From IMG/VR virus record IMGVR_UViG_2537562189_000008, positions 1 through 42,791 of that record: DNA of 42,791 nucleotides; one strand, written 5' to 3'. This document shows positions 1,855 through 35,806 of this stretch, piece by piece. Origin of the DNA: a virus (Duplodnaviria; Heunggongvirae; Uroviricota; Caudoviricetes). The notes under the pieces are model-generated. The model was not told the origin of the DNA. It worked only from the letters and a program-made list of their open reading frames with translations, and did not search any database. Each line of letters starts with the position of its first letter. Positions within the stretch are counted from its first letter, which is position 1. The translations under genes and the position numbers were made by a program.

Positions 1855-3924
1855 TTATTGATAGAAAACAGTTTTCAGTCCTGTGTTAGTCCCAACAGAG
1901 GTAATCCCTCTGTAAAGGCCGACATTACTGTTGGTTGTGCTATCAACCCTAACGATTCCATCAATGTTATTTATAAGTGAATTTGTGGTTTGTACAGCGT
2001 TGACAGCATAAGATTTACTTTGTGCTGATATATTTGATGCAACTAAAGTACCAGTTGTCATTGATACACCAACGCTTGACGAACCACTCTCAAAAACTGA
2101 ATTTTTAACAATAGCTTTTGCAACCCCACCAGAAATGTTTATATCTGCTCCGTTAAATGCCTGACTGATTCTCTTGACGTCTGACACGCTGATCAGAGAT
2201 ATACTTCCACCTGATAATATATCAAAGAAGAATGAAGACCTTGTGGGATTTGAACTTGATACTGAAATATCACTTAAGTAAACATTACCAATATTAAATC
2301 CGTATCTGATTTCTAACAAAATCGCCCCGTCATAACCTTGCCCATATATGCCATTAATATTTACATACGGTGTTGTGTTATTAACTGCCCGAATTGCGAC
2401 TATGTATCTTGATCCTTCAGAGTGAATGTTATTCGCGTTTACCTGCCCGGAAGTTATCTGTAGACCTGCGCTTAGCTCATAGGTTGCTGTCGTCTTAAGA
2501 TAAACATCACTGATAGTATTGAACCCATCAGATGAATCAACACCATTGCCAATCCTTCCTCGCCCACTAACACCACGAACAACACAGGAACTACCATAAA
2601 CACTAACACAACTATACATAGGGTTAGTTGCTGAGGCGTCATCACAAACCGCAAATACATTTGTTACTGTAACATCATTGGCCTGAACTTTGACTGCTCG
2701 CTTAAGTGCATTGTAAGTATAAACGCCATCAACCTTTATTTTCTTCCCGCTGAGCATATTTGATGATGAGTTGTAAATCTGAATAACAACACCATCAGCA
2801 TCTTCCCAAGGGTTTAGCTTGTAAATCCTTACGTTACTTATAACTCCACTTGATACCTCATCATCATTTGATGGTACTGGATCAAGTGCCGTTCCTACAA
2901 GAATCCCTCGACATGGCCCAATTACATCACCCTGAATACCATTTCCAATGGTGGTAATATTATGTATTGATATGTTATCAACGACAAAATTCAATACAGA
3001 ATTTGCATCTATGAAAATACCATAAGTTAGTTGAGAACCATTACTATCAAAAACATCAACATTCTTAACTACTGGATTAACAGCCCCTGTTTTGATATGA
3101 ACAGGCCTTCTAATTGCCATCATATTGCAGTTAACTTTAATATTGTTAAGCATGCATGAGTTTACTGTTATAAATGATCCTTCATCTCCGATAGCAACAA
3201 TTTCACCATTAATCAAATCTTTCGTAATATTGATGGTGCTGGCTTTAACTGTAGTTCCGTTAAGGTCCACATTCAATCCGTGCGCCATAATAGATTCAAT
3301 TGAATATTTCGCATCAGCACTCGTATCGATATACTGAGATGGCCAAACCAGTGTGTTATGAGGTGAAGAGTATTTATAAGATAGGCCATTCCTTGTTAAA
3401 TATAACTGTGATGCTGATACCGAAAACCCATCGGCAAGACCTGTAATTCCCGGAGCATATTCGTAAATCTCACCTGAGGATGTGGTGATTTTAAAACCAA
3501 CATTTGGATCTGAATCCATGGCACCATGTAATGCCCCATTTACTAAATTAACCCCACCAACACCATCTAACTCCTGTCTTAGTTGGTCAGGGTCATACTT
3601 CAGCACATTAGGAAAATAGAACTGCTGCGCACCATACGCATCATATACAGCCATAGAATGGCCTTGCACAGTTACGAACTTGGCAATCTGCCCGTTATAT
3701 ACCGGGTAACCAGCAGCGTTAATGATGATTGGTTGCGAAACAGGAATGTGAGAACCGTCTTCGTTTTCCACATAAACCTGAATCTGGTTTTCAGGATTTA
3801 CCGGATCAGTGTCAATTTTACCGATATAAATTTTGCCATTGGCAACCGCTTTAAAAGAACGCGCCATAGTGAAGAGTTGAGAAGGCATGCTCACTACAAC
3901 ATTGGCATTTATTGAATCTGTCAT
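1855..3924 (-). CDS. Tailspike protein with P22-type N-terminal head-binding domain and a divergent beta-helix receptor-binding domain
   Basis: 689-aa ORF; N-terminus [12 protein letters not shown]...[38 protein letters not shown] matches P22 gp9 head-binding domain from memory; remainder is Ser/Thr/Asn/Gly/Val-rich as in beta-helix tailspikes; AT-rich C-terminal portion. Confidence 0.9.
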
Positions 3925-32825: not shown

Positions 32826-33476
32826 ATGAAAACTCAATTGATGGGAGAGCGCATTCGCGCTCGGAGAAAAGAACTCAAGATCAGGCAAGCCGCACTTGGA
32901 AAGATGGTCGGCGTGTCTAATGTTGCCATATCTCAGTGGGAACGCTCTGAGACAGAGCCAAATGGAGAGAATCTTCTTGCCCTGGCTAATGCGTTGAAGT
33001 GTTCCCCTGACTATCTGATGAAAGGAGAGGAAAGTCTTTCAAACATTGCCTATCACAGTAGGCATGATCCAAGAGGGTCATACCCTCTGATTAGCTGGGT
33101 GAGCGCAGGATGCTGGATGGAAGCTGTAGAACCATATCATAAGCGTGCAATAGATAACTGGTACGATACAACCGTAGACTGTTCAGAAGATTCGTTTTGG
33201 TTGGACGTGAAGGGAGACTCAATGACGGCTCCGGCCGGTCTCAGTATCCCTGAAGGAATGATAATACTCGTCGATCCTGAAGTAGAGCCGCGTAACGGGA
33301 AACTGGTAGTTGCAAAGCTCGAAGGAGAAAACGAGGCAACTTTCAAGAAGTTAGTTATTGATGCAGGCAGGAAGTTTCTAAAACCACTTAACCCACAATA
33401 TCCGATGATCGAGATCAACGGAAACTGCAAAATCATCGGCGTAGTTGTCGATGCAAAACTAGCAAACCTTCCATAA
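32826..33476 (+). CDS. c2: Prophage repressor C2 (LexA/S24 peptidase-type, autocleavable)
   Basis: 216-aa product; N-terminal HTH (IRQAALGKMVGVSNVAISQWERS), C-terminal S24 motifs (GDSM, K in VVAKLEGENEATFKKL); matches P22 C2 from memory. Confidence 0.92.
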   Translation: MKTQLMGERIRARRKELKIRQAALGKMVGVSNVAISQWERSETEPNGENLLALANALKCSPDYLMKGEESLSNIAYHSRHDPRGSYPLISWVSAGCWMEAVEPYHKRAIDNWYDTTVDCSEDSFWLDVKGDSMTAPAGLSIPEGMIILVDPEVEPRNGKLVVAKLEGENEATFKKLVIDAGRKFLKPLNPQYPMIEINGNCKIIGVVVDAKLANLP

Positions 33477-33477
33477 G

Positions 33478-33500
33478 GGGGCATTCGCCCCTTTTTTTTA
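33478..33500 (+). terminator. Rho-independent terminator after c2
   Basis: GGGGC-ATTC-GCCCC hairpin followed by TTTTTTTT immediately after the c2 stop. Confidence 0.75.
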
Positions 33501-33540
33501 TTTCCTTTAAAAATCAAAGCCAAACTTAAGTTACGAAAGA

Positions 33541-33596
33541 AAATTTAAGTTTTCTTCAAAAATACTCTTGACCATTAATTAAAGAGATCTTAAATT
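33541..33596 (+). promoter_or_regulatory. pL promoter with OL operator sites
   Basis: TTGACC (33568..33573), 17-bp spacer, TAAATT (33591..33596); operator-like palindrome ATTAAAGAGATCTTAAAT (33578..33595) and additional ATTTAAG half-sites upstream. Confidence 0.65.
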
Positions 33597-33641
33597 TAAG
33601 CCATCAGCAGGACGCTGGTAGCCAAACGGAACAGATTGGCA

Positions 33642-33682
33642 GGCTCTTTAACATTGATGGGATTGTCCCGCCGAAATGCGGG
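33642..33682 (+). promoter_or_regulatory. nutL-like site (boxA GGCTCTTTAACA; boxB hairpin CCCGCCGAAATGCGGG)
   Basis: Same boxA/boxB pair as at nutR, located between pL and the N-like gene. Confidence 0.65.
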
Positions 33683-33790
33683 AACCAAAGAGTAGTTGGC
33701 TTTGGGGTGACGTGAAGTGCAGCTGCACGACGGCAACCGGAAGATAAGCACCCGGCGCGTCACCGCCAAAGTCAATCATCGGAGGTCAAC

Positions 33791-34063
33791 ATGACAGTAG
33801 TCATTACATATCTGGCTGACGATAACGCCAGAAATCGCCGCAGAGCACGCAGACAGGCTCAACGTGAACAGGCAATGCAAGAACAGCGACTGGCGCGAAA
33901 AATTGAGCTAAAGCTCTCTGGTTGCGTCAGAGCAGATAAAGCAGCATCACTCGGAAGCATTCGCTGCAAGAAGGCAGATGAATGCAGTGGAAGTATTTGC
34001 CTGCCAAACGTAGCCATTTACGCGGCAGGCTACCGGAAATCAAAACAACTGACGGCGAGGTAA
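33791..34063 (+). CDS. N-like transcription antiterminator (arginine-rich motif)
   Basis: 90-aa ORF first in the pL operon; arginine-rich motif NARNRRRARRQAQREQ near N-terminus; GGAGG 5 nt upstream of ATG. Confidence 0.7.
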   Translation: MTVVITYLADDNARNRRRARRQAQREQAMQEQRLARKIELKLSGCVRADKAASLGSIRCKKADECSGSICLPNVAIYAAGYRKSKQLTAR

Positions 34064-34065
34064 TT

Positions 34066-34458
34066 ATGGGTCAGGAAGAAAAATATGAGCTTAAAAAGCT
34101 CATTGGAGAAGACGCTATAGAAGAAATTGCAGCATTAACAACAGCTATAAAGAATATTAGGTATGCGCTAAATACGCTTATCTCCTCATGCGACAAAAAT
34201 AGCAGGGAATTTTTGATACTTGGCGCAGCTCTAGGAATAGTTGATGCGGCAACGCTTCACCTAATTACTCATGACGATATTCTTATTGAGCCGTATGAAA
34301 CATTACTGCTTGTCAGGCAAAAAATGGATGATGCCGCAGCAAATGGAGACCTTCAACTTTACATCGACTTAAGGAAAGTATTAAGGCGAATGGTCAAAAC
34401 TGAAGGAGATATCCCCCTGAGCGATGCTAAACAAGGAATACAAGCAAAGCTGGAATGA
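34066..34458 (+). CDS. Hypothetical protein (130 aa), AT-rich early-left accessory gene at the ral/sieB-equivalent position
   Basis: ORF track 33982..34458; ATG at 34066 follows N stop with GAGG upstream; no TM segments or recognisable motifs; low GC. Confidence 0.55.
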   Translation: MGQEEKYELKKLIGEDAIEEIAALTTAIKNIRYALNTLISSCDKNSREFLILGAALGIVDAATLHLITHDDILIEPYETLLLVRQKMDDAAANGDLQLYIDLRKVLRRMVKTEGDIPLSDAKQGIQAKLE

Positions 34459-34774
34459 CCATTATCCTGATGAAGTATCGAAAGCACAGTCAGCAATTAG
34501 CAAAGCTCTTGGGGAAGAATGATGAATAGGAAATACATTGTTGAATGTTATAGAGCGAGAAACAAAAGAAGTAATTAAACATTTCGAATTTGATAATTAT
34601 AGAAAAGCTGACCGCGTCGAAGAAGGATTGTTGCGACAAAGTAATCTCGAAAAATTTGATGTTGTCATGCGATGCGAATAAGCGCCTATAGCAGATTTGC
34701 GAGTTTGCTATGTGAGCAATGTCGCTCGTAACTAAACAGGAGCCGACTTGTTCTGATTATTGGAAATCTTCTTT

Positions 34775-34801
34775 GCCCTCCAGTGTGAGGGCAATTTTTT
34801 T
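34775..34801 (+). terminator. Rho-independent terminator (tL-like) just upstream of the coiled-coil protein gene
   Basis: GCCCTC-CAGTGT-GAGGGC hairpin followed by AATTTTTTTT. Confidence 0.7.
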
Positions 34802-34813
34802 GACGGAGGATAT

Positions 34814-35782
34814 ATGAGTGAAGTAACAGATTTAGTTGTTATTGAAAAAGCAAATGCAATGACTGTATTTCAGTCTGCCGACCAGATTGAAGAAATCCTT
34901 CAAAAGGTTGAACGTGAAGTTATGTCCTTTGTGCCTGATATCGCAACGGCAAAGGGCAGAAAGGAGATCGCTTCTCTGGCGTATAAAGTTGCGCAGACGA
35001 AAACATATCTCGATGGTCTTGGCAAAGACCTTGTTGCTGAACTGAAGGAAATTCCAAAGCTAATTGATGCCAACCGCAAGACAGTGCGTGATCGCCTTGA
35101 TGAGCTGAAAGCCAAGGTACGCCAGCCTCTTACTGATTATGAGGAAGAACAGGCGCGGATTAAAGCCGAAGAAGAAGCTAAGGCAGCAGCTGAAGCTCTC
35201 GCAAAGCAAATTGAGTCTGACCATGAAATAGCGATTTTGATGGATCGCGAATTTGACCGCCAAAGAGAAGAGGCAAGACTCAAAGCGGAGCAGGAAAAGC
35301 GAGAGCATGAAGAACGCTTAAAAAGAGAAGCTGAAGAGAAAGCCAGAGCAGAAGCCGAAGCAAAGGCAAAAGCCGAAATTGAAGCAGCAGCAAGGCGAGA
35401 AGCAGAAGCTAAGGCCGCAGCGGAACGTGCAGAGCGTGAACGCATTGAAGCCGAGCAACGAGCACAGCGCGAAGCAAAAGAGGCAGCAGAACGAGCTGAA
35501 AGAGAAAAGCAGGCAGCAATTGAAGCAGAACGCAGAAAAGCACAGGAGGAGGCTGAACGAATCCGTCGTGAGGCTGAAGCAAAAGAGCAAGCCAGAATAG
35601 CAGAAGAAAAAAGAATCAAGGACGAAGAAGAGCGTAGAGCAAAGGATAAAGCTCACCGGAAAGAAGTAAATAACAAAATACTTGCTGACCTTATCAAGGT
35701 TGGCGCATCAGAAGATGTTGCTAAAAATATCATAACAGCCATCGTAAAAGGCGAAGTATTCGCAACAAAAATAACCTACTAA
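34814..35782 (+). CDS. Hypothetical protein with long charged Ala/Glu/Lys/Arg coiled-coil core
   Basis: ORF track 34760..35782; GGAGG upstream of ATG at 34814; about 150 residues of AEAK/ERER low-complexity helix flanked by globular termini. Confidence 0.6.
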   Translation: MSEVTDLVVIEKANAMTVFQSADQIEEILQKVEREVMSFVPDIATAKGRKEIASLAYKVAQTKTYLDGLGKDLVAELKEIPKLIDANRKTVRDRLDELKAKVRQPLTDYEEEQARIKAEEEAKAAAEALAKQIESDHEIAILMDREFDRQREEARLKAEQEKREHEERLKREAEEKARAEAEAKAKAEIEAAARREAEAKAAAERAERERIEAEQRAQREAKEAAERAEREKQAAIEAERRKAQEEAERIRREAEAKEQARIAEEKRIKDEEERRAKDKAHRKEVNNKILADLIKVGASEDVAKNIITAIVKGEVFATKITY

Positions 35783-35806
35783 TAAAACCAACATAAGGAA
35801 CCACCC

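Follow-up and report, generated by a model that had tools for sequence, protein, structure and literature searches.

The region analysed here occupies positions 34066 to 34813 of a 42,791-nucleotide stretch of viral DNA (IMG/VR record IMGVR_UViG_2537562189_000008, positions 1 to 42,791), the whole of which is called the window. The window represents an E. coli phage or prophage of mosaic, lambdoid / P22-like character. In the phage collection, phiv205-1, HK620 and CUS-3 come closest to it, each with at most 56% coverage of the half that was searched (20000-42791). On the + strand, an S24/LexA-type repressor gene (32826-33476) is followed by a pL-like promoter, nutL and N, and then by the region under study. 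HK620 and the window are 98.8% identical over pL, nutL, N and most of hkaQ, all of which are annotated in the HK620 record. The features at this locus are the following.

33568-33596, + strand: pL-like early leftward promoter (TTGACC-17-TAAATT consensus match; pL is annotated at the equivalent position in HK620)
33641-33683, + strand: nutL, read from the sequence and placed by its 98.8% identity to the nutL annotated in HK620
33791-34063, + strand: N antitermination gene, 90 aa (Pfam PF25694 N_peptide, E 1.2e-15; phrog_271, E 8e-34)
34066-34458, + strand: hkaQ-family gene, 130 aa (phrog_7374, identity to HK620 HkaQ, and dN/dS)
34415-34420, + strand: recombination junction at a 6-nt microhomology, CCCTGA, that the end of hkaQ shares with a phrog_1273 gene (seen on aligning the window with HK620 and locus L020)
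34421-34522, + strand: 3' stump of a phrog_1273 gene, its last 32-34 codons (profile positions 68-101 of 103, E 1.9e-4)
34519-34681, + strand: phrog_6949 small gene, frameshifted (phrog_6949 profile; alignments to mEp043, mEp213, APC_JM3.2 and E. coli prophages)
34546, + strand: extra T that changes GAA-GTT to GAATGTT (alignments to homologues)
34687-34712, + strand: 11-bp hairpin with a UNCG loop and no U-run after it, just 3' of the small-gene stop codon
34714-34801, + strand: bsq4 boundary sequence and intrinsic terminator tL2A (identity to Sf6; Sf6 and HK620 annotation)
34814-35782, + strand: Sf6 gene-33-like gene, 322 aa, the first past the terminator (phrog_1376, E 1.6e-110; annotations of relatives)

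The pL-like promoter is flanked by an operator-like 19-nt inverted repeat (33541-33559 and 33579-33597), and nutL contains boxA (GCTCTTTAAC, 33644-33653) and a boxB hairpin (33668-33683). In relatives, the slot between N and the terminator holds ral, sieB-like genes, Nmad5, and 'Smchd1' or DUF2528 genes. This slot is an accessory-gene hotspot, in keeping with an earlier note on this DNA that had described it as the position of ral/sieB-type functions. The protein encoded just beyond the terminator (34814-35782) is highly charged and rich in Ala, Glu, Lys and Arg; it carries the PGAP label 'TolA' but scores 8.6 bits on the TolA model, for which the cut-off is 59.

The same note had drawn attention to a 130-aa, AT-rich ORF straight after N (34066-34458), to some 350 bp thereafter that lack any ATG ORF of at least 60 codons on either strand (34459-34813, 355 bp), and to a frame of about 47 codons in this tract that has only a TTG start and follows AGGAAA (frame at 34538-34681, AGGAAA at 34528-34533). 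As descriptions of the sequence, these statements are accurate. The region is AT-rich, yet it is not extreme, because its GC content (39.9% in the ORF and 38.9% across 34459-34813, where the window as a whole has 46.7%) falls only at the 6th and 5th percentiles, respectively, among segments of the same size. The ORF-poor gap is also not exceptional, because it is the fifth-longest of its kind in the window. The minus-strand ORFs of the tract yielded no family match. The ORF-poor appearance is due to the stump of a truncated gene, to a second gene that is frameshifted, and to a conserved non-coding boundary with its terminator.

The 130-aa protein matches phrog_7374 (E 9e-79, residues 1-120 on a 120-position profile) and is 98.3% identical over residues 1-119 to HkaQ of phage HK620 (AAK28865.1), which is annotated as 'unknown' in the HK620 record. 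The HkaQ portion comprises residues 1-118 (34066-34420), and the final 12 codons (34421-34458) run out of frame in the stump of another gene. The statement in the earlier note that this protein has no recognisable motif holds for Pfam (0 families at E<=1) and NCBIfam (no match). It does not hold for the protein as a whole, which is already catalogued as HK620 HkaQ / phrog_7374, the only family returned by the PHROG scan. The Pfam and PHROG scans gave no similarity to Ral or SieB. Neither HkaQ nor the small protein discussed below has a match in PADLOC, which lists defence proteins rather than anti-defence proteins and so bears little on an anti-defence role. In the literature, one study placed insertions between hkaP and hkaQ of HK620, using that intergenic region as a neutral site (PMC4506075); searches on hkaQ, the PGAP name given below and the boundary sequences returned nothing relevant beyond that report.

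The hkaQ ATG lies 2 nt past the N stop codon and has the Shine-Dalgarno sequence GAGG, and hkaQ is probably translationally coupled to N. This start matches that of distant homologues located directly after N. Comparison with a homologue that is 64% identical across 118 aligned residues gives a dN/dS of 0.17; hkaQ is therefore a genuine protein-coding gene under purifying selection.

The HkaQ family is very small. It forms 5 clusters among 5.8 billion proteins, and an exhaustive phmmer search gave 6 matches among 1.84 billion representatives, to which a profile search adds two. The named members come from prophages of Escherichia (E. coli, E. albertii) and Symbiopectobacterium, and the most divergent ones from metagenomic contigs. 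Of the 5426 complete E. coli genomes, 96 (about 2%) carry the gene, and the matches listed include O26:H11 str. 11368 and other strains with an HK620-like arrangement. HkaQ also occurs in HK630, HK629, the Stx1a phage Stx1a_10051 and O26:H11 prophages. One of the 6 phmmer matches, to a Calx-beta repeat protein (P0009) in which the HDDxLxE block recurs in six repeats, was rejected as chance; HkaQ is modelled as helical, whereas the Calx-beta domain is a beta-sandwich.

Almost all HkaQ-family genes are followed by a convergent gene, with the two 3' ends abutting or overlapping. In three lineages the partner is SieB (PF14163); HK620 and O26 have HkaP in this place, and one case has a GhoS-like ORF. 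The loci with hkaQ and its convergent gene are these.

L001 (HK620): 2971-3858
L055: 157-946
L056: 1846-2740
L059: 49-901
L009: 4001-4714
L060: 1801-2688

A homologue of SieB or HkaP is absent within the window, which has lost the convergent partner of hkaQ.

HkaQ is acidic (pI 4.96), and AlphaFold2 returns an all-helical model that is weak (pLDDT 67.7, pTM 0.41). A fold search with Foldseek against BFVD and the PDB gave nothing below E 0.26, and a sequence-profile search of the PDB gave nothing below E 0.3. The best-conserved block of the family, IVDAATLHLIxHDDxLxEP at residues 58-78 (34237-34299), coincides with the least confident part of the model (residues 70-75, pLDDT <50). No intrinsic terminator is found on this strand between pL and 34773, and therefore HkaQ should be an immediate-early product along with N. 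We tentatively suggest that HkaQ, acidic and helical as it is, might be an early accessory factor that binds a host or rival-phage protein, in a role such as anti-exclusion, anti-defence or host takeover. A more specific proposal, which we regard as doubtful, is that HkaQ would be an immediate-early anti-exclusion or anti-defence factor, co-expressed with N, that neutralises an abortive-infection or exclusion protein of the SieB or HkaP type, like those whose genes converge on hkaQ in most relatives, with the invariant IVDAATLHLIxHDDxLxEP block as the interaction site. If HkaQ does counter exclusion or defence, it would be one more accessory factor encoded in the lambdoid pL operon.

The name 'antitermination N domain protein', which the automatic NCBI pipeline PGAP gives to some copies, would instead make HkaQ a partner of N in antitermination. 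In every context in which the upstream gene is visible, the hkaQ relative (43-98% identity) lies immediately after an N-like antiterminator; this position is seen in the window, HK620, O26 11368, and loci L010-L012, L054 and L056. At L010, HkaQ is 64% identical to the protein of the window and thus more conserved than the adjacent N (32%), except at the C-terminal end of N. Both observations would suit a protein that works with N. However, HkaQ matches neither N family in Pfam (PF25694 N_peptide and PF26859 Phage_N_antitermin; E<=1) nor any NCBIfam model, and the PGAP name sits on ORFs that reach back into N, though not in its reading frame. Furthermore, HK140, N7, CUS-3 and lambda imm21 have this type of N followed by ral or other genes and have no hkaQ; N therefore does not need HkaQ. 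A role as a partner of N is therefore improbable, and an accessory function remains our preferred, if tentative, reading of HkaQ. The N proteins beside HkaQ homologues (L010, 1009-1281; window, 33791-34063) have in common the C-terminus SGSxCLPxVAxYAAGYRxxKQxTAR. Because this C-terminus is kept despite an overall N identity of 32%, the 3' end of N and hkaQ may travel jointly as a single mosaic module.

Homology to HK620 ends at CCCTGA, and from 34421 the sequence is that of the 3' end of a phrog_1273 gene. What is left of this gene is a 32-aa ORF (34424-34522) that preserves the C-terminal 32 residues, and a full-length phrog_1273 ORF (92-98 aa) is not present at this position. The stump matches the C-termini of Sf101_0034 and of 96-aa variants at loci L020, L029, L030 and L052; the 96-aa variants end in QNWNDHYPDEVSKAQSAISKALGEE, and Sf101_0034 ends similarly. 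The join is out of frame, such that HkaQ reads through 12 foreign codons before a stop (130 versus 120 residues). The tail of HkaQ that is replaced here is the part that AlphaFold2 models as disordered. Ten complete genomes of E. coli share this junction, as do several contigs of IMG/VR; it is therefore an old recombination event at the microhomology and no assembly artefact.

Overlapping the end of the stump is a second gene, in which the TTG frame described above is contained. This frame matches phrog_6949 with E 4.2e-34, and its residues 2-47 align with profile positions 7-52 of 52. Intact phrog_6949 genes have 52-53 codons and begin ATG ATG AAT AAG AAA TAC ATT GTT GAA GTT, as in mEp043, mEp213, APC_JM3.2 and many prophages. 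In 34 of the 46 loci examined, they overlap (ATGA) a full-length phrog_1273 gene. Phage mEp213 (L003) carries two different N genes in tandem (1678-2010 and 3163-3435), with the phrog_1273 / phrog_6949 module between them. Both ATGs (34519 and 34522) persist in the window, as does GGGGAA upstream of them. The conserved start is the second ATG, because some copies have GTG or ACG in place of the first. The extra T at 34546 shifts the ATG frame after codon 8-9, and this frame then stops at 34576-34578 after 18-19 codons. An intact, ATG-initiated phrog_6949 ORF of about 52 codons is thus not present at this position.

The extra T is shared by one genome (E. coli G3) of the 60 listed among 90 matching E. 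coli genomes, and it is absent from all 41 copies in IMG/VR viral contigs and metagenomes. The G3 prophage is the closest relative over 33480-35800, with 98-99% identity. The simplest reading is that the T was inserted once, in an ancestor common to the window and G3. A search of the genome-contig collection, which holds one genome per species, did not find the small-gene pattern. AlphaFold2 models the intact phrog_6949 protein as beta-beta-alpha-beta with a pLDDT of 93.3, and the frameshift takes away residues 1-9, including half of strand 1. These findings make the small gene most likely a pseudogene of recent origin in this lineage. The possibility raised in the earlier note, that the tract holds a small protein, is thus supported insofar as a small-protein gene (phrog_6949) is present; the TTG frame, however, is not a cryptic non-ATG gene but part of a 52-codon ATG gene broken by a 1-nt insertion.

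The 47-codon frame might nevertheless still be expressed as a shortened functional protein from the TTG at 34538 (or 34541), using AGGA at 34528-34531, which lies 6 nt ahead of the TTG. The new N-terminus would read MLNVIE in place of YIVEVIE, such that most of beta-strand 1 could remain, and neither the window nor G3 has acquired secondary stops despite about 1.8% divergence over 2 kb, which is compatible with residual function. Several observations make such expression unlikely. TTG is a weak start, and the original ATG with its GGGGAA Shine-Dalgarno sequence is intact, so that ribosomes on the 18-19-codon ORF (to 34578) would cross the TTG. Moreover, G3 has the insertion with AAG in place of AGG and hence no AGGA, and the AGG is a pre-existing K-to-R polymorphism that is found with an intact gene at loci L014, L026 and L046. 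The allele itself is found in the single G3 copy among the 60 listed E. coli genomes and in none of the 41 other copies. A compensatory change of AAG to AGG that created a Shine-Dalgarno sequence was rejected, because AGG is present with intact genes and absent in G3. Programmed +1 frameshifting at the rare AGG codon was also rejected, given the lack of a slippery P-site context and of the extra T in almost all other copies.

An error of sequencing or assembly could also have produced the extra T, in which case the small gene would be intact. The change is a single-base indel that all other examined copies but one lack. An error nevertheless seems very unlikely, because the exception, E. coli G3, has the identical insertion in a complete genome obtained independently, with the prophage closest to this one, and the site, GAA-GTT, is not a homopolymer. 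Our reading of the small gene as, most likely, a pseudogene of recent origin therefore stands.

Past the small gene, the UNCG hairpin has a predicted free energy of -9.8 kcal/mol in the window and -12.4 kcal/mol in mEp043, and its loop is UGCG or UACG in 48 of 48 copies. This hairpin could be an mRNA-stabilising or processing element. It is followed by a segment of 117 nt (34714-34830) that is 100% identical to Sf6. The part up to 34801 corresponds to the element that the Sf6 record labels 'bsq4; boundary sequence', along with 'terminator; homology to phage lambda; tL2A'; the HK620 record likewise annotates tL2A. The strong terminator that had been reported at the end of the tract is present here, with an 8-bp GC-rich stem (34773-34794) and a run of seven T residues (34795-34801), a dG of -13.2 kcal/mol and a z of -4.6.

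Matches to part of the tract occur in about 395 phage records, mostly through the bsq4/tL2A element. Some part of an 831-nt query is matched by 2288 of 5426 complete E. coli genomes, but these matches mostly involve other segments and give no prevalence for bsq4/tL2A. Across 47 full copies, the stem of tL2A is nearly invariant (a single substitution in two of them) and variation is confined to the loop. Right after the T-run there is a mosaic break (34795-34813, and the equivalent positions at loci L002-L052), beyond which at least three unrelated modules are found: the gene 33-like gene, a DUF2528 gene and a third sequence. This pattern is what would be expected of a terminator that also serves as a mosaic joint. 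Termination at tL2A and its read-through by N are inferred from homology and sequence.

A small regulatory RNA encoded in the tract, such as one derived from a 3' end and ending at the terminator, would explain the very high conservation of 34714-34801. This idea draws on the 117-nt element being at least 95% identical in most of the matching phage records whatever the flanks, on a segment (34682-34813) that folds better than shuffled sequence (z -3.3), and on the UNCG hairpin ahead of the element. It is nevertheless highly improbable, since Rfam 15 covariance models gave 0 matches at E<=1 in 33400-35000, the tract showed no sigma-70-like promoter, tL2A and a recombination boundary already account for the element, and variation in the loop beside a near-invariant stem would fit any terminator and offers no evidence of covariation. 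The small RNA that the earlier note had considered is therefore not borne out.

Taken together, it is quite probable that the early leftward (pL) operon begins with this region, which is made up of four already catalogued parts: hkaQ, the scar with its stump, a broken small gene, and the boundary with its terminator. By analogy with lambda and with annotated relatives, transcription from pL would yield N and HkaQ together, ahead of any intrinsic terminator. Recombination at CCCTGA would have removed the convergent, exclusion-type gene that usually adjoins hkaQ, would have put the tail of a two-gene module (phrog_1273 plus phrog_6949) in its place, and would have left both the 3' stump of phrog_1273 and the 12-residue out-of-frame tail of HkaQ. 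Afterwards, the T at 34546 would have broken the 52-codon small gene in this phage lineage, such that its ATG would now give an 18-19-residue peptide and the remainder would be the TTG-headed frame. At the end of the tract, tL2A would stop unmodified RNA polymerase, whereas polymerase modified by N at nutL is predicted from the homologous annotations to pass it and to reach the gene 33-like gene, cIII, kil and erf. The same terminator would serve as the point at which different downstream modules are joined.

The seemingly empty tract is ordinary mosaic-phage debris and no hidden new element. The value of this result is one of clean-up: a gene-poor, AT-rich tract after N resolves into gene debris and a known terminator, and a suspicious non-ATG frame into a small gene that was already catalogued and here carries a frameshift. 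The biological interest lies in the role of HkaQ, a protein that is under selection, predicted to be immediate-early and linked to N, and carried by O26 prophages and an Stx1a-converting phage.

Among known systems, HK620 provides the closest comparison for hkaQ. As in the window, its hkaQ has the same N allele directly upstream and the same start context; unlike the window, its HkaQ is 120 aa long, ends in IPLTK and is followed by the convergent hkaP, whereas in the window the last residues are swapped for the 12-residue out-of-frame tail SDAKQGIQAKLE and there is no hkaP. Lambda Ral and SieB/Esc have in common with the 130-aa protein the slot between N and tL2, but not any sequence or profile similarity. 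The tL2A/bsq4 element of Sf6 and HK620, an annotated homologue of lambda tL2, occupies the same position in the pL operon, before gene 33, cIII and kil, and has the same hairpin and U-run; it differs from that of the window in nothing of note, and the loop alone varies among copies. The small proteins mEp043_045, mEp213_048, APCJM32_49 and WP_001037043.1 (phrog_6949, 52-53 aa) are 91-94% identical to the TTG frame over its 47 residues. Their genes are followed by the same hairpin and boundary sequence as in the window, but they begin with ATG, whereas the copy in the window is frameshifted and its phrog_1273 partner is reduced to a stump.
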